In this document: in pieces, positions 46,669 through 58,094 of the stretch
Numbering within the stretch: position 1 is the first letter of the stretch
Layout: every line of letters begins with the position of its first letter
Origin: Felixounavirus LF110P2
Direction: 5' to 3' (one strand)
Length of the DNA: 64,000 nucleotides
Sequence record: OZ035782.1
Notes under the pieces: generated by a model
Told to the model about the DNA's origin: nothing
The model's input: only the letters and a program-made list of their open reading frames with translations
Databases searched by the model: none
Position numbers and translations under genes: made by a program

Positions 46669-48813
46669 ATGAACAAAGTACAGATTATTAAAAAGAATGG
46701 CTCACTTGAAGAACCTGATATCAAAAAAGTTTTAGCAGCAGTCACAAAGTCAGCTAACAGAGTTGGTTATAAAGAGCTTCCACCAGATGTTACTCAAGCT
46801 CTTGAGTCAGCATTTATGAGGATTCTGGTAAAGTCCACTAAGCAGAATAATTTGCTAATTTCGGTAAATGATATTCACAGTATTGTTGAGGGTGCTTTGG
46901 CAGAAGTCAATCACGAGATTTATGAGTCTTACTCAACATATAGAAATTACCGTAAAGAGGTTGCTCAAAATTGGGATGAACTCTACCAGAAGACCAAAGA
47001 TACACTCTTCTTAGGCGACCGAGAAAACGCTAATTTTGACAGCAGTTTAATTTCTACAAAAGGCTCAATTATTCGTGGTTACCTGACTAAAGAAATCTTT
47101 AAACAGTACCATTTAACACCAGAGGAACTTGAAGCCATTGAAAAAGGATTTATCTATATCCATGATTTAAGAGACCTAATTTTTGGTGGTATCAACTGTT
47201 GCCTGTTTGACATTGGTAAAGTCCTGAAAGGTGGCTTTGAAATGTCTGGCATCGAATATTGTGAACCGAAGTCTGTGCTGTCAGCCTTACAGGTTATTGG
47301 TGATGTAGTTCTTTCAGCAACTGCACAGCAATTTGGTGGCTTTACTTTAGCAGAGATTGATAAGGTACTTGTACCGTATGCTAAGAAGTCTCTACGCTAT
47401 CATGCTGAGAAAGCAGCATCTTATGGTATTCCTAAAGAACATTACCATAATTATGTCATGGAGCAGCTACAGATTGAATTAACTCAAGGTTTTCAGTCAC
47501 TTGAAATGAAACTGAACACTGTACCTTGCAGCCGTGGTGATTTCGCATTCACAACTTTAACATTCGGGTTACTTGACTCAGATATGTCTAATGAAGACAA
47601 CCGACTACAATACATGATTGCAAGTACTCTCCTAGATGTTCGTATGAATGGACAAGGTAAGAGCAAGAAGCCTGTTGTATTCCCTAAACTGGTTTATATT
47701 CATGACCAGAAGAGACACGATGAGAATATCTGTCAAGGTCAACTGTACAGTAAAGCTATTGAGTGTTGCTCTAAAGCGATGTATCCAGATTTCTTAAGCG
47801 TATCTGGTCATGGTGCTGTAGCAGAAGCTTTTGAGCGTTCTGGCAAGGTAATTTCACCGATGGGTTGCAGAGCTTTCTTATCCCCATATCTTAACGAGAA
47901 TGGAGAAGAGTTCTACGTTGGACGTGCTAACATTGGTGCTGTATCTTTGAACTTGCCAATGATTTACCAGTATTCTAAAGAGAATGGTTTAGATTTCTGG
48001 AAAGAGCTTGATAAGTACCTAGAGATGATTCGCAGCTTCCACAAGAAACGCTACGAAATGATTGCTAATATGCCAGCAAGTTCTAACCCTCTTGCATTCA
48101 CACAAGGTGGTCTGTACAAAGGGACTAAGAAACCTACTGACAAGGTTGGTTGGGATATCGTGAAGTCCTTCACAGCTTCTTTTGGGGTTACTGCTCTTGA
48201 TGAGCTGTCTGTTCTTGCTGAAGGTAAACGACTTCATGAAGTTGGAAGCTATAGTTTTGCATACGATGTTCTGGCATACATTAACATGAAAACTGAAGAG
48301 TTTAAGAACGAAGATGGCTTCTTGTATGCGGTATATGGCACTCCAGCAGAATCACTTTGTGGAACTCAGTTAAAACAGTTCAGAGATATGTTTGGCGTTA
48401 TTAAAGGTGTCTCTGACAAGGAATATTTTACAAACAGTTTCCATATGAATGTTGCAGCAGATATCTCACCATTTGAGAAGCAGGACTTAGAAGAGCCATT
48501 CTTCCATATCTGTAGAGGCGGCAGAATCCAGTATGTGAGGGTAGCTAACCCAGAAAACTTACCAGCACTTAAAAGTTGTATTACAAGAGGGATGTTGAAG
48601 GGTTTTTATCAAGGACTTAACTTTGACTTAGCAATCTGTGAACATTGTGGTAACAGACCAAAGGCTGATGTTGAAGAATGTGAGGTTTGTCATTCACACG
48701 ATATCTCTGTGATTAACAGGGTGTGCGGGTACTTGTCATTCACAAAAATTAAAGGTCAGTCTCGAATGAATGACGCTAAGATGGCAGAAATTAAGGATAG
48801 GGTTTCTATGTAG
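46669..48813 (+). CDS. nrdD: Anaerobic ribonucleoside-triphosphate reductase (class III)
   Basis: C-terminal glycyl-radical signature RVCGYLSF preceded by a Cys cluster (CEHCG...CEVCH); 714 aa. Confidence 0.85.
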   Translation: MNKVQIIKKNGSLEEPDIKKVLAAVTKSANRVGYKELPPDVTQALESAFMRILVKSTKQNNLLISVNDIHSIVEGALAEVNHEIYESYSTYRNYRKEVAQNWDELYQKTKDTLFLGDRENANFDSSLISTKGSIIRGYLTKEIFKQYHLTPEELEAIEKGFIYIHDLRDLIFGGINCCLFDIGKVLKGGFEMSGIEYCEPKSVLSALQVIGDVVLSATAQQFGGFTLAEIDKVLVPYAKKSLRYHAEKAASYGIPKEHYHNYVMEQLQIELTQGFQSLEMKLNTVPCSRGDFAFTTLTFGLLDSDMSNEDNRLQYMIASTLLDVRMNGQGKSKKPVVFPKLVYIHDQKRHDENICQGQLYSKAIECCSKAMYPDFLSVSGHGAVAEAFERSGKVISPMGCRAFLSPYLNENGEEFYVGRANIGAVSLNLPMIYQYSKENGLDFWKELDKYLEMIRSFHKKRYEMIANMPASSNPLAFTQGGLYKGTKKPTDKVGWDIVKSFTASFGVTALDELSVLAEGKRLHEVGSYSFAYDVLAYINMKTEEFKNEDGFLYAVYGTPAESLCGTQLKQFRDMFGVIKGVSDKEYFTNSFHMNVAADISPFEKQDLEEPFFHICRGGRIQYVRVANPENLPALKSCITRGMLKGFYQGLNFDLAICEHCGNRPKADVEECEVCHSHDISVINRVCGYLSFTKIKGQSRMNDAKMAEIKDRVSM

Positions 48814-48820
48814 AATACAA

Positions 48821-49399
48821 ATGAATTACGAACTAATATATAATGCAATTATTAAAAAGGCACATTCTGAAAGGGGTGTGCCTCTCACATACTACAAATG
48901 TCAAGGTAAGGGTTATGAAAGACACCATATCATACCAGTATGTCTAGGTGGCGATAAAATTAGTGGAGATAACATTGCTTTACTTACACCTAGAGAGCAT
49001 TATATAGCTCATAAATTACTGGTTAAGATGTATCCAAACAATCATAAGTTATGGTTTGCATGGAGCAGGTTAGCTCATGATGGCCTAGATAGGAAAATAT
49101 CATCCAGAGACTATGAAAAGGTAAGGGCTTTAAACTCGAAAGCTCTATCGATTGTGAATAAAGGTAGGGTTTTCACTGAAGAGCATCGAAGACGATTAGG
49201 AGAAGCTCAAATAGGTAATACAAAGTCAAAAGGTTGTAAAAGGTCTATGGAAACAAGGAAGAAGATGTCAGAAGCCGGAAAAAAGCCAAAGAAAAAGAAA
49301 ACTTGCCCGCATTGTGGCATGACTGGTGGTGCTGGTAACATGACTCGATATCATTTTGACAATTGTAAGAAAAAAAAAATAACCTTATGTAAAACTTGA
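48821..49399 (+). CDS. HNH homing endonuclease (free-standing, between nrdD and nrdG)
   Basis: HNH core YERHHIIPVCLGGDKISGDNIALLTPREHYIAHKLL; C-terminal zinc knuckle CPHCG and Lys-rich tail. Confidence 0.6.
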   Translation: MNYELIYNAIIKKAHSERGVPLTYYKCQGKGYERHHIIPVCLGGDKISGDNIALLTPREHYIAHKLLVKMYPNNHKLWFAWSRLAHDGLDRKISSRDYEKVRALNSKALSIVNKGRVFTEEHRRRLGEAQIGNTKSKGCKRSMETRKKMSEAGKKPKKKKTCPHCGMTGGAGNMTRYHFDNCKKKKITLCKT

Positions 49400-49790: not shown

Positions 49791-49993
49791 CAATGGCAAC
49801 ACTCTTAAAGGTATTGACACCCACACTACACATAGTAATCTTCTTCTTTGGGGTTAGTGTTATGGTATGGGGTTTTTCAGACCCACAATGGAGTTTATCA
49901 TATCATGGACAAATGGATTTATGGTCATGCTTCAAACCATTTTTAGGGTTAGCTATAGCATTCAGTGCATTACCAACTAGGGTGAAATTATGA
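49778..49993 (+). CDS. Small membrane protein
   Basis: 71 aa, hydrophobic. Confidence 0.25.
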   Translation: MVELTMATLLKVLTPTLHIVIFFFGVSVMVWGFSDPQWSLSYHGQMDLWSCFKPFLGLAIAFSALPTRVKL

Positions 49994-50385
49994 TTAAGTT
50001 GAGCAAAAAACAGTTAGAGTGGATTAAAGATTACGCCTCAGAGTGTGGCTCTTGCGAAAAGAATCACGTAAGATATTCAACATTCCATACAACCTTCGCA
50101 TTGTACATAGGTGACAACGTTCTAAGTGATTCCGTAGAAGATGGTGTAGCGTTGCCTAATGAATTGCTTGACAAATTAGCTGTAGTCACTGGAACTTGGT
50201 CTGAAGAAGACGGTCATGAATTATCTGATGATGTTGTCTTCTACAGTATTGAAAATATTATGAATCCAGAGTACATTATGCTAATGACTTGTGCACAAGA
50301 CTGTGTACCATTACAAAACTTCATCAAAGAGCACTGTGAAGAGTTTATTACTAAACAGGTTCCTTGTCAGGTAGTGTTTGAATAA
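49990..50385 (+). CDS. Hypothetical Cys-containing protein
   Basis: 131 aa ORF. Confidence 0.3.
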   Translation: MIKLSKKQLEWIKDYASECGSCEKNHVRYSTFHTTFALYIGDNVLSDSVEDGVALPNELLDKLAVVTGTWSEEDGHELSDDVVFYSIENIMNPEYIMLMTCAQDCVPLQNFIKEHCEEFITKQVPCQVVFE

Positions 50386-50420
50386 GTAAAAGGCTTAAAT
50401 AATATTGGTGAGGTAACTAG

Positions 50421-50906
50421 ATGAATTACATGGAGATTAGACCATTTGACACAGCTAATGGTGAAGGGGTTCGTGTAAGTCTCTTCGTAGCTGGCTGTAA
50501 ACATCACTGTGAAGGTTGCTTTAACAGGGAGTCTTGGAAGTTTAATGCTGGTAAAGTATTTACTTATGCAAACCTTTATGGCATTCTAAGACTTTTGGAA
50601 GATGACTCTTTAAGTGGGCTGTCTATCCTCGGTGGAGAACCATTGGATGACCGTAACATTGGAGAAGTCACTAAGATTTGTCAGAAGGTTAAATCAATCT
50701 ATCCAGAGAAATCTATCTGGCTCTGGACAGGTTTTCAGTTACATGAAAAAATTCACCTTGATGTGATGAAATATGTTGACGTGGTGATTGATGGTAAGTA
50801 TGATTCATCTAAACCAACAGTTAAACCATATCGTGGTTCTGATAACCAAAACCTCTGGAGAAAAGAGTATGGGTGGCAAGGTGATTGTCAGTGGAGAGCA
50901 GAGTGA
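50421..50906 (+). CDS. nrdG: Anaerobic ribonucleotide reductase activating protein (radical SAM)
   Basis: CKHHCEGC radical-SAM CxxxCxxC cluster near N-terminus; about 160 aa; near nrdD. Confidence 0.75.
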   Translation: MNYMEIRPFDTANGEGVRVSLFVAGCKHHCEGCFNRESWKFNAGKVFTYANLYGILRLLEDDSLSGLSILGGEPLDDRNIGEVTKICQKVKSIYPEKSIWLWTGFQLHEKIHLDVMKYVDVVIDGKYDSSKPTVKPYRGSDNQNLWRKEYGWQGDCQWRAE

Positions 50907-51004
50907 TTATTCTGGCAAATGGACTAAGGTATAACTCCAATTGGTATCACTGAAGAAGAACTTCATAAGTTCTGTATTAAACTTTAATGAGAGAGAGACT
51001 AAAA

Positions 51005-51271
51005 ATGGGAATTTTAGGTAATATGAAAGCTGGATTCTTGAAGGCACTGGAAAAAGCAGCAGCAATTGTTTCTATGACTGGAAAGCAGGTCGGTGTAGAT
51101 GCTTCAGTGGTTGCACAGGTTCTTGCAAGCCAAATTGAACAGCAGCCTTACATCTACGTAGGCCGTGGTAAAGGTGGTAAGAAACAAGCCCACCGTCCGT
51201 CTGGTGCAGCAGCTATTAAACGAGCAGCTAAGAAAGCTCGTAACCGTAAACGTAATAAGAAGGCTAAATAA
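51005..51271 (+). CDS. Small protein with highly basic C-terminal tail
   Basis: C-terminus KRAAKKARNRKRNKKAK; start chosen at second ATG after GAGAGAGAGA. Confidence 0.3.
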   Translation: MGILGNMKAGFLKALEKAAAIVSMTGKQVGVDASVVAQVLASQIEQQPYIYVGRGKGGKKQAHRPSGAAAIKRAAKKARNRKRNKKAK

Positions 51272-51273
51272 TC

Positions 51274-51594
51274 ATGAGCAAAGTTTATAACACTCGCAAA
51301 TTACAGATTTTCGTACTGTGCCAGTTTATGGCTAAAGAATACAACTTCTACTATTGTGGTACAGGTTTTATTAGTGATGATGATGGCTCATACCTCCCAT
51401 TTAAAGAAGCTGTAAAGCTCTTTAATGAAGAGAAAAGCTCTAAGAAAGATATTGAAAAGGTTAAGCTAACCTACAGCAAGAAAGATAAGAAGATTATCTG
51501 CCTAGATAACTTTGTGAAAGTTACTGGAGAAGCAAAAGAGTTTATGGATGAGAGTGAGATTTCATTCACAAGCATCTTGAAAGTAGCTCAGTAA
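51274..51594 (+). CDS. Hypothetical protein
   Basis: 106 aa ORF. Confidence 0.3.
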   Translation: MSKVYNTRKLQIFVLCQFMAKEYNFYYCGTGFISDDDGSYLPFKEAVKLFNEEKSSKKDIEKVKLTYSKKDKKIICLDNFVKVTGEAKEFMDESEISFTSILKVAQ

Positions 51595-51607
51595 ACAGAT
51601 ACTATAA

Positions 51608-51631
51608 GGGGACTGTAAAGGTTCCCTTTTT
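51608..51631 (+). terminator. Intrinsic terminator
   Basis: GGGGAC tgtaaag GTTCCC hairpin (one G-U pair) followed by TTTTT. Confidence 0.45.
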
Positions 51632-51645
51632 ATTTTGGAGATGAT

Positions 51646-52161
51646 ATGTATCTGTCAAACCTGAAACGTTCGGTTGCAATGTCAGTTCTAAGACTCAGCT
51701 TTGATGAGCGTCAAGAATTTATAGACTCCCACAAATATGACCCTTCAAATTCTAATCACATGGTTCTTTGGAATCGTGATAACTTCCGTGAAAGAGCACT
51801 TGTCCGTTATTACCCACACTACACAATAGATAACCTGTATGAATGGTGTGTTGTTAAGAACACCATTGCAACACTGAACAATCTTTGCAGGTATACGGGT
51901 AAGCAAACATTTACACTAGGCCACCACAAACCTGTTACAAAGGGTGGTGAGCATCACTGTGCAAACTGGTTTATCCAGACTAAACTTGATAACCAGAAGC
52001 AAGGAGATAACCTTCTAAGCACACCTAAGATGACCTATGAAGAGCAAGAGAAATATATCAAAAACAATATGCCAGATGTGCTTGACAACAACTATACAGA
52101 TTTGGCAATATCTCTCTTGTTGAAGTTCGAGACAGTTTATAGGGCAACTTATAATGGCTAA
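51646..52161 (+). CDS. Hypothetical protein, possible HNH-like nuclease
   Basis: GHHKPVTKGGEHHCANWF...N..Q is HNH-like but degenerate. Confidence 0.25.
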   Translation: MYLSNLKRSVAMSVLRLSFDERQEFIDSHKYDPSNSNHMVLWNRDNFRERALVRYYPHYTIDNLYEWCVVKNTIATLNNLCRYTGKQTFTLGHHKPVTKGGEHHCANWFIQTKLDNQKQGDNLLSTPKMTYEEQEKYIKNNMPDVLDNNYTDLAISLLLKFETVYRATYNG

Positions 52162-52432
52162 AGAGAAGTGGGAGATTTTACCATTAGTCAGTGAAGGTGG
52201 TAATGGTTGTGAGATGTACATGATACGTGGTCATGTTCCAGAACCAATTGCACTTGAGATGGTAAACAACTTTACAGATGGCTCTTACAAAGACTTAGGA
52301 GAGCCAACTATAAAGCAGCAATGGGTAAAGCCTGTACCAGACAGCACAGGTAACTGTAGTGTACTTTATCACGTTGTAGACCCTGCAAAATGCAAATCTG
52401 CAATGGCAGTAACAAACGTAACTTTTGATTGA
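52154..52432 (+). CDS. Hypothetical protein
   Basis: 92 aa ORF. Confidence 0.3.
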   Translation: MAKEKWEILPLVSEGGNGCEMYMIRGHVPEPIALEMVNNFTDGSYKDLGEPTIKQQWVKPVPDSTGNCSVLYHVVDPAKCKSAMAVTNVTFD

Positions 52433-52443
52433 GAGAGAAAACT

Positions 52444-53325
52444 ATGAAAACATCTATCCGTGTTACAGTTCATTCACCAACTAAAGGGACTCATGAAGAA
52501 GAGTTTAACATCGTCCAATTCCCTTCTGGTGAGATTGGTGGACACTTTTCGCCAGAGTTTGTTGATTTTACTGCTTATGCAGCATCATCTATCAACAATG
52601 TGATTATGATTGTAAAAGGTTATGATAAAGATACATTGTTTGCTGTGGCACTTGCTAAAGAGGCGGTGGATAACTTAGTACCTCATAAGTTTGCTATGAA
52701 GACCATTATCTTTTACTATTTGCCAAATGCACGTTATGACCGTCACATGTTTAAAGGTGATGCAGCAGCTTTGAAAGTGTTTGCACAACAGGTTAATGCA
52801 ATGGGTTTTGATGCAGTCTGTGCAGTTGACCCTCACAGCTATGTACCAGATAACCTGTTTAACTGCTTCCAGAGTATTCCTCAAAAGGAAATTGCAGTCC
52901 ACTATGCAAATGACCCACTGATTGATTACTTAGTAGCCCCAGATGCAGGTGCTGCTAAGAAGATTGCAGAGACTGCTAAAGAGGTGGATAAACCATACAT
53001 CACAATGTCTAAAGTGCGTAACCTTAAGACTGGTGAAATTACTGGTATGCGAATCCTTGATGATGTTGATTTGACAGATAAAACCGTCATGATTCTGGAT
53101 GATATCTGTGATGGTGGTCGAACCTTCATAGAAGCAGCGAAACATCTTCGTGAAGCAGGTGCAAAACGTGTGGAACTTTATGTAACACATGGTATCTTCT
53201 CTAAAGATGTTGAAAACCTTCTTGACAATGGTATCGACCATATTTACACTACAAACTCTTTAGGCGAAGCTAAAGACCGTGGCTTAACACATTACAGTCA
53301 AGTTACTGTAGCAAACCTTGATTGA
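52444..53325 (+). CDS. prs: Ribose-phosphate pyrophosphokinase (PRPP synthetase)
   Basis: PRPP-binding loop VMILDDICDGGRT and overall size about 295 aa; ATG at 52444 preceded by GAGAGAGAAA. Confidence 0.7.
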   Translation: MKTSIRVTVHSPTKGTHEEEFNIVQFPSGEIGGHFSPEFVDFTAYAASSINNVIMIVKGYDKDTLFAVALAKEAVDNLVPHKFAMKTIIFYYLPNARYDRHMFKGDAAALKVFAQQVNAMGFDAVCAVDPHSYVPDNLFNCFQSIPQKEIAVHYANDPLIDYLVAPDAGAAKKIAETAKEVDKPYITMSKVRNLKTGEITGMRILDDVDLTDKTVMILDDICDGGRTFIEAAKHLREAGAKRVELYVTHGIFSKDVENLLDNGIDHIYTTNSLGEAKDRGLTHYSQVTVANLD

Positions 53326-53334
53326 AAGTTTATA

Positions 53335-53355
53335 GGGGCTTAAAAGCCCCATTTT
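53335..53355 (+). terminator. Intrinsic terminator (weak U-tract)
   Basis: GGGGCT taaa AGCCCC hairpin followed by ATTTT. Confidence 0.4.
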
Positions 53356-53370
53356 GAGAGAGATTAAAAG

Positions 53371-55152
53371 ATGACTAAATCACTTTATGCAGTACCAGCA
53401 GGTTTAAACGCAGATGCTTACAAATCTGGTCATGTTTACCAGTACCCTAGTGCAACAGAGTACTTGATGTTCAACCTGACACCACGTAGTGACAAATGGT
53501 TTAACAGCCCCTTAGCAATTGATGGTGTAGTAGCTTTTGGTATTCAACGTTTCGTTAAAGATTACTTGATAGACCACTGGAACGCCACTTTCTTTGAACG
53601 TGATAAAAAAGAAGCCATTGATGAAATCTTAGAAGTCATGAATGGTGTTCTGGGTAAAGATGCTATCGGTCGAGAGCATTGGGAAGCACTTCACGACTTA
53701 GGTTATCTACCAGTTGAAGTATACGCTGTAGAAGAAGGCACAGTTGTTCCAATGCGTGTCCCGATGATTGTCTTTCAGAACACTGTTTCAGGTTTTCATT
53801 GGGTAGCGGGGTATCTGGAAGATGCTTTCTCTGCTGAAATTTGGAAGGCTTGCACCATTGCAACTATTGCATTGCATTACAAACGCATCTGTAAGAAGTG
53901 GGCTGACCTTACTTGTGACAATGACTTACATTTACCTTATCAGTGCCATGATTTTGCTATGCGTGGTATGTCCGGCTTTACTGATGACGCATTTAACGCT
54001 GTAGGTCACTTAACCAGCTTTAAAGGAACTGATAGCTTCCCTGCTGTGTATACGGCTAAACGAATCTATGGACAGTCCTACCCAATCTCTGATATTGGTA
54101 GCTCTGTACCAGCCACTGAGCACTCTGTAATGTGTGCAAACATTGCTTGGAAAGGTGGCAATGAGTTGATTGAAGAAGAAAGACGCTTTAAAGGTGAGTT
54201 ACAAACCTTCCGTCGTTTCTTAACAGAAACTTACCCAACTGGTATTGCAAGTGTTGTTTCAGATACTTATAACTTCTGGAGAACTGTGTCAGAAATCTTA
54301 CCAGCACTCCGTAAAGAAATTATGGAACGTGATGGTAAACTGGTAATTCGTCCTGACTCTGGAGACCCTGTACATATTGTCACAGGTTATAAAGCAATCC
54401 ACTTAGAGTGTGCTAAAAAGGCTTATTATGAGCACCTAAGCAAGCTGGAAGCTAGTGACACAATGCTGAATGCTGTTCTGAACATGAAGCTTGAAAACAT
54501 CAACTATGGTATTGCTGGATGGCTACTGTCAGAAGGCTACGAAATGGTTGTTGACAGAGAAGACTTTGAAGCTGCTGATACGGTGCTGTTGAAGAATGCT
54601 TATATGGTTGGCTCTGCAAACGTTGTAACACGTCCTGTAGCGGAGATTGATGGAGCTATTAAGACACTGTACAACATCTTTGGGGGAACTATTAACTCTA
54701 AAGGGTTTAAGGTACTGGATGAGCACATCGGCCTTATCTATGGTGACTCTATCACACTGGAACGTGCAAACGAAATCCTGAAGCGTCTGTATGAAATGGG
54801 TTTTGCAAGCTCTAACGTAGTGTTTGGTGTAGGCTCTTACACTTACCAGTACATGACTCGTGACACCTTTGCATTTGCTGTCAAAGCAACTCTTGCAAGC
54901 ATTGGTGGTAAAGAGATTATGCTTGCAAAAGACCCTAAAACAGATAGTGGTGTTAAGAAATCTGCCTTTGGTGGTGTAGCACCTATGTGGGATGGTGATA
55001 AGCTGAAAGCTGTAGATGGCTATGGGTTCCAGAGTTTTGCAGATGTACTTGACCACCCAGCTTGTGCCTTACGTTTAGTCTTTAGTGACTCTGAGCAGTT
55101 CGGTTACACAACTCTTGGTGATATTCGAAATAATATTGACAAGCAGCTTTAA
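53371..55152 (+). CDS. nadV: Nicotinamide phosphoribosyltransferase (Nampt/NadV)
   Basis: 593 aa; internal region ...GIASVVSDTYNFW...LVIRPDSGDP... typical of Nampt family; adjacent to prs. Confidence 0.75.
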   Translation: MTKSLYAVPAGLNADAYKSGHVYQYPSATEYLMFNLTPRSDKWFNSPLAIDGVVAFGIQRFVKDYLIDHWNATFFERDKKEAIDEILEVMNGVLGKDAIGREHWEALHDLGYLPVEVYAVEEGTVVPMRVPMIVFQNTVSGFHWVAGYLEDAFSAEIWKACTIATIALHYKRICKKWADLTCDNDLHLPYQCHDFAMRGMSGFTDDAFNAVGHLTSFKGTDSFPAVYTAKRIYGQSYPISDIGSSVPATEHSVMCANIAWKGGNELIEEERRFKGELQTFRRFLTETYPTGIASVVSDTYNFWRTVSEILPALRKEIMERDGKLVIRPDSGDPVHIVTGYKAIHLECAKKAYYEHLSKLEASDTMLNAVLNMKLENINYGIAGWLLSEGYEMVVDREDFEAADTVLLKNAYMVGSANVVTRPVAEIDGAIKTLYNIFGGTINSKGFKVLDEHIGLIYGDSITLERANEILKRLYEMGFASSNVVFGVGSYTYQYMTRDTFAFAVKATLASIGGKEIMLAKDPKTDSGVKKSAFGGVAPMWDGDKLKAVDGYGFQSFADVLDHPACALRLVFSDSEQFGYTTLGDIRNNIDKQL

Positions 55153-55167
55153 AAGTATATGATAAGA

Positions 55168-55188
55168 GGCTCCTACGGGAGCCTTTTT
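55168..55188 (+). terminator. Intrinsic terminator
   Basis: GGCTCC tacg GGAGCC hairpin followed by TTTTT. Confidence 0.6.
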
Positions 55189-55205: not shown

Positions 55206-55541
55206 ATGAAAATCAAAGAAATGAACATCAACATTGTCTTAGAAGAACGTTGGGAGAACATCAAGAAGCCTGAAGATGGCCATAAGTTTCTTAACAAAAT
55301 TTTAGTAGCAGCTAAAGAAGAACTAACTGGCAAGGTCGCAGCAGCAATTACAATAAAGGTCTGTGTAAAAGGTCTTCCAGATAATCACCAATTTGCACTT
55401 GACGAGTTTAAAGAAAGCTTCTACAATCCAAACAAACAGATGCTTGAAAGTAACTTTGCAGTGTCTACAAGTATCGTCCATGACAGAAGCTTTATCCTTT
55501 ACAAGAATATGAGAGGTGAGTCATGCAAGCATATTGGATAG
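55206..55541 (+). CDS. Hypothetical protein
   Basis: 111 aa ORF. Confidence 0.3.
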   Translation: MKIKEMNINIVLEERWENIKKPEDGHKFLNKILVAAKEELTGKVAAAITIKVCVKGLPDNHQFALDEFKESFYNPNKQMLESNFAVSTSIVHDRSFILYKNMRGESCKHIG

Positions 55542-55702
55542 AAATTTTACTGTCACTTGGTAGTGTAGCAGTATTTGTCTACCTCCTTTGTAAGTACTTT
55601 GCAGAGCACAAAAAATGTGACTACTGTAATGGAGAGGGGTGCATAAGGGCAGGTTGTTGCCCTATGTGTGGTGGTTCTGGTAAAATGTTTAATAAGTAAT
55701 TT
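55526..55702 (+). CDS. Small membrane-anchored zinc-ribbon ORF (58 aa), not in supplied track
   Basis: MQAYWIEILLSLGSVAVFVYLL... then CDYCNGEGC...CCPMCGG. Confidence 0.2.
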
Positions 55703-55727
55703 AACAGTAAACTAAGAGGAAAGTATT

Positions 55728-58094
55728 ATGCGCATGGTAAATGACCACGCAGAAGTGATTAAGAGTTCAACTTCTTTGGAGACATCTCAAGCACAGATTA
55801 CAATGACACCTGAAATGTTCAGTCTTCTGAGTTCTGGTGTATATACCTTTAAAGAAAGGGCAGTGATTCGTGAACTGTCATGTAACGCAGTAGATGCTCA
55901 GAAAGAAGCTGGAAAAGAGAATATTCCGTTCCATGTGCATTTACCTACTCGTTTTGAACCTTACTTTGAAGTCCGTGATTTTGGCACTGGATTGACTCAT
56001 GATAAAGTTATGAGTTTGTACCTAAACTACGGGGCTTCTACGAAGAATGACTCTAATGACTACATTGGTGCAATGGGTATCGGCTCAAAATCTCCATTTG
56101 CAATTGCTCAGTCATTCACAGTGTCTAGCTATGTTGACGGTGTTGTTAATAAGTACTCTGTTTATCTTGAGAATGGTATCCCTCAAGTAACTAAGCTAAC
56201 CACTAACCCAACAAAAGAACCTAATGGTTTAGCTGTACGTGTAGCAGTTGCTGACCACCGTATTTCAAAGTTCTTTGAAGAGGCTGGTAATGTATACTCA
56301 TACTTTGCTGTAAAACCAGAGAGTAATGTGGAGTATAATGATATATTAGCAGATATGGATGTGATTGCTCGTGAAGAAGGTGTCTATGATGCCATGACTC
56401 ATAAGCATAGCTGGCGTTCAAGCAGCAATAGAACAGAGTTTAACGTGGTTATGGGTAATATTGCCTACCCAGTTAATATGGAGGCATTACTTGGTGATGA
56501 TTTCTTCAAAGTCTTGCCAGAATTTTTCCGTAGGAGCGTAGACCTTGTAAACATCTACATGCCTATTGGCTCAGTTGCTATTGCAGCTTCTCGTGAAGCA
56601 TTGCAGATGAATGACACGACAAAAAATGTTATCATCGAGGCTACTAAAAAGATAACTGAAGCAATTACAAAGGATGTTATCAAGAAAGTTAACAGTCAAC
56701 CTACACTCATGGATGCTGCACAGGCTTATGCTGAGTTACGTTTGAACTCACGAGAGATGTTTAATGCTGTGTGTCCAAAGCTAGAGTGGGGAGGCGTTAA
56801 GCTTGATTCTCTGGAAGAAGAATTGCTAAACATTCGTCGTGGAATTATCTACGCAGAAGACGGCTCAGTCATCTATGAACGTGATGGTAAGGGTAATATT
56901 AAGGTTGACAGGAACGGAAACAATATCCCTAAAGTAGATTATCTTTATGACCCAGTTGCTTATGTTAAGTTTAACTCTTTAGAAAGTAAGATTCGTGCAA
57001 CAGCACTTTCCTACACTCAAGAGGCAAGTATGTTCAATATCTTTGGCGCAATGCGTAAAAGCCAAATTGAACAGTTTTTGTTTGTTATAAACGACCGTCG
57101 CAATAAAAATGGTACTGAGAAGACTGTAGGACGCAATCAGATTCTGCGTGGTGCATGTCGAGACTATGCCAGTGAGTCTAGTCTGTTTCACAGATATAAT
57201 GGCATTGTGTTTGTATTCTCGACTGAAAAAGAGTTAGATGATTTAATCAATCTACACAAACTTGATAAAAGCTTGTTAAAGATTGTGAAAATGTCTGATA
57301 AGGAGCACCATTACCAGCGTAAAGAAGCTGTAAGGGGTGTTGTAAAACTCTGGAAAGCTGTTCCAGCAGAAGGTGTAGCTTCCTATAAAGAGGTTTCAGA
57401 GGACTTTGATACAATTGAAGAGCCTCAGCTTTACATTAAGGCAGTTGGCGACACAGTTGATGGCGAATGTTTTTGCTCATCTCCAGAAGATGTAGCCAAG
57501 TCAGTTGCTAATGTTACAGGGAAGACAGTCTATGTTTTCCGAAAAGCAAATTGGAAAAAGATACCAGAAGACTGGATTGAAGTAGATGAGAAACTCTTGA
57601 ACGACAGCTTAACTGATGTTCATTGGATTAATCATAACAGATATATGACACGCATCTACATGAATGGTGTTCTTGACCTGACAAGCAGTTGGATTATTGC
57701 CAGAAACTTTACGTTCAATAACAGGAAGATTTCTCGTGGCTATTGCTATTCACGGGATACAAACAAAACTATCTTCCTAGAAGGAAATGAAGATGCTGTA
57801 GAGGCAATGTTTGGTAAAATCCAATACGTTGCTGCACCATTTGCATACACTTATACTATTAGTGTATTAAAAACTTTGAAAGACTGTCTTGACAATGATA
57901 CAAAGCTTTACAAGAAAATTAAGAAAGCTGGTGACCGTATGGTCATTAAGGTGACAAACTACCTTTCAAAAAGAAAACAAGAAAACTTCTTGCTTTCTCA
58001 TTTGGATTGGAATAAAGTGTCACCCATCGAAGTGAGTAAGTTCTTAGGCTTTGATGTAAAATGTGTTCCAGAAGGGACTACAATTTACGATTAA
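55728..58094 (+). CDS. rIIA: rIIA-like protein (GHKL-type ATPase domain)
   Basis: N-terminal Bergerat-fold motifs IRELSCNAVDA (N box), RDFGTGL (G1), IGAMGIGSKSPF (G2), and ...MPIGSVAIAASREAL..., matching T4 rIIA as recalled; followed by rIIB-like gene. Confidence 0.7.
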   Translation: MRMVNDHAEVIKSSTSLETSQAQITMTPEMFSLLSSGVYTFKERAVIRELSCNAVDAQKEAGKENIPFHVHLPTRFEPYFEVRDFGTGLTHDKVMSLYLNYGASTKNDSNDYIGAMGIGSKSPFAIAQSFTVSSYVDGVVNKYSVYLENGIPQVTKLTTNPTKEPNGLAVRVAVADHRISKFFEEAGNVYSYFAVKPESNVEYNDILADMDVIAREEGVYDAMTHKHSWRSSSNRTEFNVVMGNIAYPVNMEALLGDDFFKVLPEFFRRSVDLVNIYMPIGSVAIAASREALQMNDTTKNVIIEATKKITEAITKDVIKKVNSQPTLMDAAQAYAELRLNSREMFNAVCPKLEWGGVKLDSLEEELLNIRRGIIYAEDGSVIYERDGKGNIKVDRNGNNIPKVDYLYDPVAYVKFNSLESKIRATALSYTQEASMFNIFGAMRKSQIEQFLFVINDRRNKNGTEKTVGRNQILRGACRDYASESSLFHRYNGIVFVFSTEKELDDLINLHKLDKSLLKIVKMSDKEHHYQRKEAVRGVVKLWKAVPAEGVASYKEVSEDFDTIEEPQLYIKAVGDTVDGECFCSSPEDVAKSVANVTGKTVYVFRKANWKKIPEDWIEVDEKLLNDSLTDVHWINHNRYMTRIYMNGVLDLTSSWIIARNFTFNNRKISRGYCYSRDTNKTIFLEGNEDAVEAMFGKIQYVAAPFAYTYTISVLKTLKDCLDNDTKLYKKIKKAGDRMVIKVTNYLSKRKQENFLLSHLDWNKVSPIEVSKFLGFDVKCVPEGTTIYD

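Follow-up and report, generated by a model that had tools for sequence, protein, structure and literature searches.

NAD+ reconstitution pathway 1 (NARP1) is a general phage strategy that repairs the damage of many unrelated NAD+-depleting defences rather than inhibiting each of them. The pathway was discovered in genes 79-80 of the BASEL phage Bas63 (Escherichia phage JohannRWettstein, MZ501086; 87.1 kb), a Felixounavirus, in work that started from an expected conversion of phosphoribosyl pyrophosphate (PRPP) to nicotinamide mononucleotide (NMN), an expectation that failed (bioRxiv 10.1101/2024.02.11.579819). Here we analyze two adjacent genes at positions 52444-55152 of a 64,000-nucleotide stretch of Felixounavirus LF110P2 DNA (the window), which very probably form a NARP1 operon orthologous to that founding example. 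An earlier note, made from the sequence alone, had read the pair as a PRPP synthetase (Prs) and a nicotinamide phosphoribosyltransferase (Nampt or NadV) that make PRPP and then NMN, and so counter NAD+-depleting defence.

In the founding study, the Bas63 genes were described and deleted as one two-gene operon, and the deletion caused an approximately 20-fold loss of plaques on cells with SIR2-HerA. Wild-type Bas63 restored NAD+ and overcame SIR2-HerA in a host without pncC and nadR. Pyrophosphorylated ADP-ribose (ADPR-PP) was seen in infected cells only with SIR2-HerA present, and phages with NARP1 gave no rise in NAD+ in cells without a defence system. The purified Prs-like enzyme of Bacillus phage SpbetaL1 used ADP-ribose (ADPR) and ATP, but not ribose-5-phosphate, and in the canonical Prs assay no product was obtained with it. 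The Nampt-like enzyme converted ADPR-PP and nicotinamide to NAD+, and in a reconstituted in vitro reaction the SpbetaL1 homologues synthesized NAD+ from ADPR, ATP and nicotinamide. Among genes of the clade of the Prs-like enzyme (Adps), 97% adjoin a gene for the Nampt-like enzyme (Namat), and no phage was found with both NARP1 and NARP2 (all bioRxiv 10.1101/2024.02.11.579819).

Structures of both enzymes of the pathway are available. In SpbetaL1 Namat (9W5W, 9W5X), a "selectivity clamp" binds the adenine of ADPR-PP. The published consensus of its selectivity-clamp helix (SCH) is GS-X-phi-X-phi-X-phi-TRD, and in the selectivity-clamp loop (SCL) an Arg at position 3 stacks or, with Lys or Tyr there, the next residue does so, as in Bas63 Namat (PMC12774641). 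In the Adps of Vibrio phage ICP1, seen by crystallography and cryo-electron microscopy, R87, H121, D161, D212, D213 and D216 serve the acceptor and K185 acts in catalysis; the pyrophosphate (PP) loop is remodelled and the C-terminal regulatory helices of Prs are lost (PMC13586617). Related systems include NARP1-AP, which comprises Adps, a Macro-domain phosphatase (Adpp) and Namat (bioRxiv 10.64898/2026.01.28.702374), a RyDEP-extended NARP1 (bioRxiv 10.64898/2026.05.28.727677), NARP2 of Vibrio phage KVP40, in which the Nampt NadV is paired with NatV, an NMN adenylyltransferase (NMNAT)/Nudix protein, and NARP3, which consists of PnuC and a NadR-like enzyme (PMC13464706).

Identity of the LF110P2 operon

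The window corresponds to the first 64 kb of the LF110P2 genome (OZ035766.1, 87,144 bp), with 100% identity and the same coordinates; searches of the whole genome covered the window and the remaining 23 kb. Both open reading frames (ORFs) listed by the earlier note were found on the + strand. The gene at 52444-53325 (293 aa) is assigned as adps, encoding an ADP-ribose pyrophosphokinase that resembles PRPP synthetase and would be the first enzyme of NARP1, on the basis of its ORF, profile matches and comparison with Bas63 and ICP1. The gene at 53371-55152 (593 aa) is assigned as namat, encoding a Nampt-like nicotinamide ADP-ribose transferase that would be the second enzyme, on the basis of identity to Bas63, matches in the PDB and an AlphaFold2 model. 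A mechanical call opens the first ORF at a TTG at 52429, and the ATG at 52444 gives the 293-aa product. We favor the ATG because Bas63 was annotated from the equivalent codon and because a GAGAGAGA purine run lies upstream; the same run is found upstream of both adps and namat. The genes are separated by a 45-nt spacer (53326-53370) on the same strand, an adjacency like that seen in NARP1.

We consider the locus to be an orthologue of the founding operon, with high confidence, because genus, position, gene order, gene lengths and protein identity all agree with Bas63. Bas63 genes 79-80 measure 882 and 1782 nt and lie between nrdG and rIIA; in the window, NrdG (50421-50906, Pfam) is encoded upstream and rIIA downstream. 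The LF110P2 Adps aligns with Bas63_0079 over its full length without gaps and with 235 of 293 residues identical (80%), and 585 of 593 residues of Namat are identical to Bas63_0080 (99%), again gapless. A hairpin between the genes and a terminator downstream are also conserved. Two differences distinguish the Bas63 locus: its Adps carries a different allele of the N-terminal domain, and an additional 345-nt hypothetical gene, bas63_0081 (L006, 7509-7853), follows the namat terminator, producing a 350-nt alignment gap at approximately 55200 of the window.

From this orthology and the conserved specificity residues described below, the LF110P2 enzymes would be expected to act like their characterized homologues. 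A host NADase effector with a SIR2, TIR or SEFIR domain would split NAD+ into ADPR and nicotinamide, the triggering defences being SIR2-HerA/Nezha, DSR1, DSR2, type I Thoeris and others. Adps, with its PRPP-synthetase fold, would move the beta,gamma-pyrophosphate of ATP onto the terminal ribose of ADPR to generate ADPR-PP. Namat, a Nampt-fold enzyme with an adenine-binding clamp at the entrance of its active site, would then couple ADPR-PP and nicotinamide to NAD+ in one step with release of pyrophosphate. Neither PRPP, NMN nor an NMNAT would be involved, and ATP would be the sole input beyond the cleavage products.

The system has already been described, and the LF110P2 locus is a routine member of it. 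NARP1 has been known since 2024 from work on another member of the genus, and the locus adds nothing new to the strategy; residual novelty is limited to an insertion domain of Namat and a domain swap in Adps. The operon does predict resistance of LF110P2 to NAD+ depletion based on SIR2, TIR and SEFIR domains, which is relevant to phage therapy, and the role in countering such defences proposed by the earlier note is right, as judged from the phenotype of the Bas63 orthologue. No Adpp was found at the locus, which predicts continued sensitivity to aRES-type defence, a system that makes ADPR-1''-phosphate, by the logic of bioRxiv 10.64898/2026.01.28.702374. The strain names LF110, LF82 and NRG857C, taken by themselves, suggest adherent-invasive E. 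coli as hosts.

Approximately 257 phage records contain the same pair, nearly all from Felix-O1-like phages of Escherichia, Salmonella, Shigella or Citrobacter, and the pairing is retained in Ounavirinae relatives at 42-46% identity. Public records name the proteins "ribose-phosphate pyrophosphokinase" and "nicotinamide/nicotinate phosphoribosyltransferase". There is a lesson for annotation here, as Pfam and NCBIfam names, and nearly every public Felixounavirus record, suggest the wrong pathway and, with it, the absence of an NMNAT that was never needed. In one record, Salmonella phage ST11 (MF370225; L011, 1500-4349), adps is cut short and the annotation splits namat into two overlapping coding sequences. 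The split namat and short adps of ST11 probably reflect a frameshift, a pseudogene or a sequencing error, and a split of this type would explain the PHROG families of half-length Namat (phrog_16547 and phrog_15800).

Features of Adps

Profile searches place the first protein in the Prs family in a broad sense. Pfam matches were to Pribosyltran and Pribosyl_synth, the PHROG match was phrog_619 (1.7e-98), and the NCBIfam model TIGR01251 was matched with 127 bits (cut-off 113). TIGR01251 is a broad subfamily model and the sole Prs model passed; the protein fell below every equivalog-level Prs cut-off of NCBIfam, with a best result of 106 bits versus a cut-off of 296 (NF002095). Identity was 31% to the structurally characterized ICP1 Adps and 24% to E. 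coli Prs. By profile and pairwise identity, including the 80% to Bas63_0079, the protein falls in the phage Adps clade of the PRPP-synthetase family, near a member validated by experiment.

A MAFFT alignment of the window protein with Bas63 Adps, ICP1 Adps and E. coli Prs (b1207) showed that the acceptor and catalytic residues of ICP1 Adps are conserved: R97, H131, D167, K190, D219, D220 and D223 of the window protein correspond to ICP1 R87, H121, D161, K185, D212, D213 and D216. All three phage proteins have a gap of approximately 20 residues opposite the C-terminus of E. coli Prs, where the alpha11-alpha12 filament/regulatory module is missing. The LF110P2 protein thus resembles ICP1 Adps in having a PRPS-like fold, the conserved residues for catalysis and for the acceptor, and no Prs C-terminal helices; with canonical Prs it has the fold and catalytic chemistry in common but not the regulatory C-terminus. 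The predicted PP-loop region, DDICDGGRTF (aa 219-228; 53098-53127, + strand), was located by the alignment and would form the site for the terminal ribose and the pyrophosphate donor ATP, roles taken from PMC13586617. It reads DDICDGAASF in ICP1 Adps and DDMIDTGGTL in E. coli Prs. Thus, DDICDG is common to the two phage proteins, whereas the following residues differ (GGRT versus AAS). The N-terminal regions of the window and ICP1 proteins align poorly.

Comparison with Bas63 at the DNA level revealed a mosaic. Identity is 66-78% over 52400-52899, which encodes Adps aa 1 to approximately 155, and the boundaries are sharp, with 98-99% identity just upstream and approximately 95-98% downstream. 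Two allele groups of the Adps N-terminal domain circulate among Felixounaviruses. The phosphoribosyltransferase (PRTase) domain of Adps also gave weak PADLOC matches (E approximately 1e-6) to the defence toxins ShosT and PsyrT, which likewise have a PRTase fold, and we take these matches as mere fold resemblance.

Features of Namat

The second protein matched NAPRTase and NAMPT_N of Pfam, PRK09198 of NCBIfam (468 bits, cut-off 405) and phrog_448 of PHROG (7.5e-202). Its best sequence matches in the PDB were the SpbetaL1 Namat entries 9W5W and 9W5X (approximately 3e-128), with weaker matches to Xanthomonas Nampt (5.6e-52) and to human and other mammalian NAMPT (approximately 1e-40). The AlphaFold2 model was of high quality (predicted local distance difference test score, pLDDT, 93; predicted template modelling score, pTM, 0.91), and its best structural match was again 9W5X, with a template modelling (TM) score of 0.95 normalized to the target. 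By sequence and by fold, therefore, the nearest solved structure is SpbetaL1 Namat. The catalytic core is present as D15, Y17, F195, R198, D221, H251, R327 and D329, which in SpbetaL1 numbering are D13, Y15, F189, R192, D215, the catalytic His, R306 and D308. All of these residues except D15 and Y17 are invariant in a 30-sequence alignment, and all are invariant in a 29-sequence alignment.

Both parts of the adenine clamp are recognizable. GSYTYQYMTRD (aa 488-498; 54832-54864, + strand) fits the published SCH consensus, with Y490 and Y494 as the predicted adenine-stacking residues. The corresponding helix of SpbetaL1 Namat reads GSFTYQYNTRD, and the window protein has aromatics at both stacking positions. 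Genuine Nampts, which have the fold and catalytic chemistry in common with the window protein, do not have this aromatic pair: the two positions are Q and R in H. ducreyi NadV (9KE8; GAQTYQRNTRD) and A and K in the Xanthomonas enzyme (7YQO; GGALLQKVDRD), and human NAMPT is likewise without the pair. The predicted SCL is S40-D41-K42-W43 (53488-53499, + strand), in which K42 aligns with R40 of SpbetaL1. With Lys at the third position, the published rule would make the fourth residue, an aromatic, the stacker, and the sequence is the same in Bas63 Namat. A preference for ADPR-PP over PRPP and direct synthesis of NAD+ have been demonstrated with SpbetaL1 Namat; we infer the same for LF110P2 Namat from its 99% identity to Bas63_0080, part of the operon with the in vivo phenotype.

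The Bacillus phage system is like the window in its Namat core, its SCH signature and the two-enzyme chemistry expected of both. Its Namat differs in that identity is approximately 38%, Arg40 rather than K42-W43 provides the SCL stacker, and two insertions are lacking. The larger insertion, of approximately 85 aa (aa 343-427; 54397-54651, + strand), is absent from SpbetaL1 Namat and from Nampt. It forms a compact alpha/beta mini-domain that is confidently folded in the AlphaFold2 model, conserved in length, confined to Namat of the Ounavirinae type and missing from all characterized Namat and Nampt enzymes; no structural relative of it was detected. The smaller insertion relative to SpbetaL1 spans approximately 15 aa at about 258-275. 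Together, the mini-domain and the Adps N-terminal allele swap could conceivably belong to a part of the contest over NAD+ between phages and hosts that has not yet been described, although we regard this as unlikely. Possible roles under this reading would be that of a module for regulation or docking, linking Namat with Adps or with a factor of the host, or that of variation by which NARP1 enzymes evade a sensor or inhibitor made by the host. Replacement of the Adps N-terminal allele may be a phenomenon related to the mini-domain.

Alternative readings and other NAD+ reconstitution pathways

The most direct competitor to NARP1 is NAD+ salvage through NMN, as the earlier note proposed. A genuine PRPP synthetase would supply PRPP to a genuine Nampt, and the resulting NMN would be taken to NAD+ by host NadR, or by PncC followed by NadD and NadE, as in a NARP2-like system without an NMNAT of its own. 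TIGR01251 and PRK09198 are matched above their cut-offs, the Pfam families Pribosyl_synth, NAPRTase and NAMPT_N are hit, public records annotate the genes in the same way, and SpbetaL1 Namat does make NMN from PRPP in vitro (PMC12774641). The assignment of the two proteins to Prs and Nampt families therefore holds at the family level by Pfam, NCBIfam and PHROG, but the enzymes themselves would be Adps and Namat. Because Prs and Nampt profiles also match Adps and Namat, a profile check cannot separate the two mechanisms. What does separate them is that the orthologous Bas63 operon works without host pncC and nadR and yields ADPR-PP, and that a canonical Prs assay of the SpbetaL1 homologue yielded no product (bioRxiv 10.1101/2024.02.11.579819). 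Moreover, Adps fails to reach any Prs equivalog threshold and has no C-terminal module of the Prs type, and Namat has an adenine clamp that genuine Nampts lack. Finally, where a phage has a KVP40-type Nampt, it encodes an Nmnat as well in 94% of cases (bioRxiv 10.1101/2024.02.11.579819), and none is present in the LF110P2 genome. The PRPP-to-NMN mechanism is contradicted by the Bas63 and SpbetaL1 work and by the ADPR-PP specificity features of the window proteins, and we judge it very improbable. Still less probable is a general booster of nucleotide metabolism, in which the Prs-like enzyme would increase the PRPP available to the phage for making nucleotides and the pair would have no dedicated anti-defence role. 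The pair does sit among nucleotide-metabolism genes: NrdG is encoded at 50421-50906, and the Bas63 annotation adds NrdD and polynucleotide kinase. However, NAD+ is not raised without a defence system and ADPR-PP appears only with SIR2-HerA (bioRxiv 10.1101/2024.02.11.579819), and the 97% adjacency of Adps and Namat genes would be difficult to account for were the enzyme a general supplier of PRPP.

Several points count against NARP1 itself. The enzymology comes from SpbetaL1 and ICP1 homologues with approximately 31-38% identity, and the Bas63 protein "did not purify well" (bioRxiv 10.1101/2024.02.11.579819); the chemistry proposed for LF110P2 is thus borrowed from SpbetaL1 and ICP1, and its predicted in vivo phenotype from Bas63. 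SpbetaL1 Namat keeps PRPP-to-NMN activity in vitro at approximately half the level of human Nampt (PMC12774641), and given this activity the LF110P2 enzyme may form some NMN. Both Felixounavirus insertions in Namat are missing from the crystallized enzyme. In Adps, the ICP1 adenine contact F92 aligns with M102 and is thereby shifted by one residue from the adjacent F103, while ICP1 F18, contributed by the neighbouring protomer, can be paired with F26 only by the motif F-[SP]-[SD] and is not so placed by MAFFT. LF110P2 and Bas63 also differ in the allele of the Adps N-terminal domain, with 57% identity over aa 1-60.

A NARP1 assignment accounts for the genome having no recognizable NMNAT. The earlier note had recognized none in the window, and this observation was confirmed and extended to all 87,144 bp: E. 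coli NadD and NadR, used as phmmer queries with filters off against every ORF of 50 aa or more in the six frames, found no NMNAT or NadR ORF (best E 0.38; KVP40 NatV was not among the queries), and regular expressions for NMNAT and the Nudix box had no match in the whole genome. As a positive control, an E. coli Prs query recovered the Adps ORF at 1.4e-15. The absence is no gap, since NARP1 yields NAD+ directly, and, contrary to what the earlier note had supposed, no final step by a host enzyme or a gene outside the window would be required. The lack of NMNAT, NadR and Nudix genes also agrees with the published lack of phages with both NARP1 and NARP2.

Other described pathways were considered and rejected. 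KVP40 NARP2 resembles the window as a phage counter-defence that restores NAD+ with a Nampt-fold enzyme using nicotinamide, but it works from PRPP via NMN and needs Nmnat, whereas the window has an Adps partner and an adenine clamp; it is ruled out by the lack of Nmnat/Nudix in the 87,144-bp genome. NARP3 is ruled out because the E. coli NadR query matched nothing genome-wide, PnuC not having been searched for. NARP1-AP and RyDEP-extended NARP1 have the core pair in common with the window. The former is ruled out by the 45-nt spacer, which holds no third gene, and by the lack of a Pfam Macro match in the flanking ORFs (49990-52432 and 55206-58094; the rest of the genome was not scanned), and the latter by the same spacer and the lack of a RyR-type Pfam domain in the flanking ORFs.

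Transcription signals and neighbouring genes

A predicted intrinsic terminator with a 10-bp stem and T-run closes the operon at 55164-55187 (+ strand; terminator scan; folding energy -17.1 kcal/mol, z = -3.2), and it is the only convincing terminator of the pair. The spacer contains a hairpin, GGGGCU-UAAA-AGCCCC (6-bp stem, 4-nt loop; 53335-53350), followed by AUUUU, giving a feature at 53335-53355 (+ strand) with a spacer folding energy of -12.6 kcal/mol (z = -2.9). This hairpin was not called by the terminator scan and is followed by only four U residues. It is kept in Bas63 with one loop change and is absent in pinkbiff, the sole relative carrying an HNH gene that was examined at the sequence level. 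At most, it could terminate or attenuate transcription weakly, or else act on RNA stability. Of the two terminators that had been assigned, one to each gene, the downstream one was thus recovered by scan and fold, and the intergenic one is a real hairpin that the scan did not call. The dedicated expression of each gene deduced from them is poorly supported, given the weak spacer hairpin and the treatment of the Bas63 pair as one operon.

In many relatives, including distant Ounavirinae, the spacer holds a free-standing homing-endonuclease gene of the HNH type (HNH_3/AP2; approximately 165 aa). Examples are pinkbiff (L010, 2391-2882), Salmonella phage SB18 (L014, 3493-3990) and Pectobacterium phage Arno162 (L015, 3497-3991). 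At the same site, the window and Bas63 have an "empty" 45-nt spacer with the hairpin.

Upstream of the pair, a terminator-like hairpin of nine pairs with a T tail lies at 51606-51628 (+ strand; terminator scan; -14.1 kcal/mol, z = -2.1). Its position suggests that it may be the 5' boundary of the transcription unit that holds adps and namat, and a unit starting after 51628 may also take in genes for 171-aa and 92-aa proteins (51646-52432). A degenerate HNH-like motif (GHHKPVTKGGEHHCANWFIQTKLDNQKQGDN) occurs in the 171-aa protein (51646-52161; phrog_3500), which is kept at 46% identity in Salmonella phage SB18, two genes upstream of adps. Its conservation equals that of Adps and Namat, which would not usually be expected of a mobile endonuclease. 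No conservation is seen for the 92-aa gene that separates it from adps. Farther upstream, the nrdD region of the window (46669-49399) contains an uninterrupted ORF of 714 aa and, after it, one of 209 aa. The Bas63 annotation joins the NrdD coding sequence from two pieces (bas63_0067 and 0068; L006, 1-1517) around an interrupting homing-endonuclease gene, and the intron or endonuclease content of nrdD thus seems to differ between LF110P2 and Bas63.

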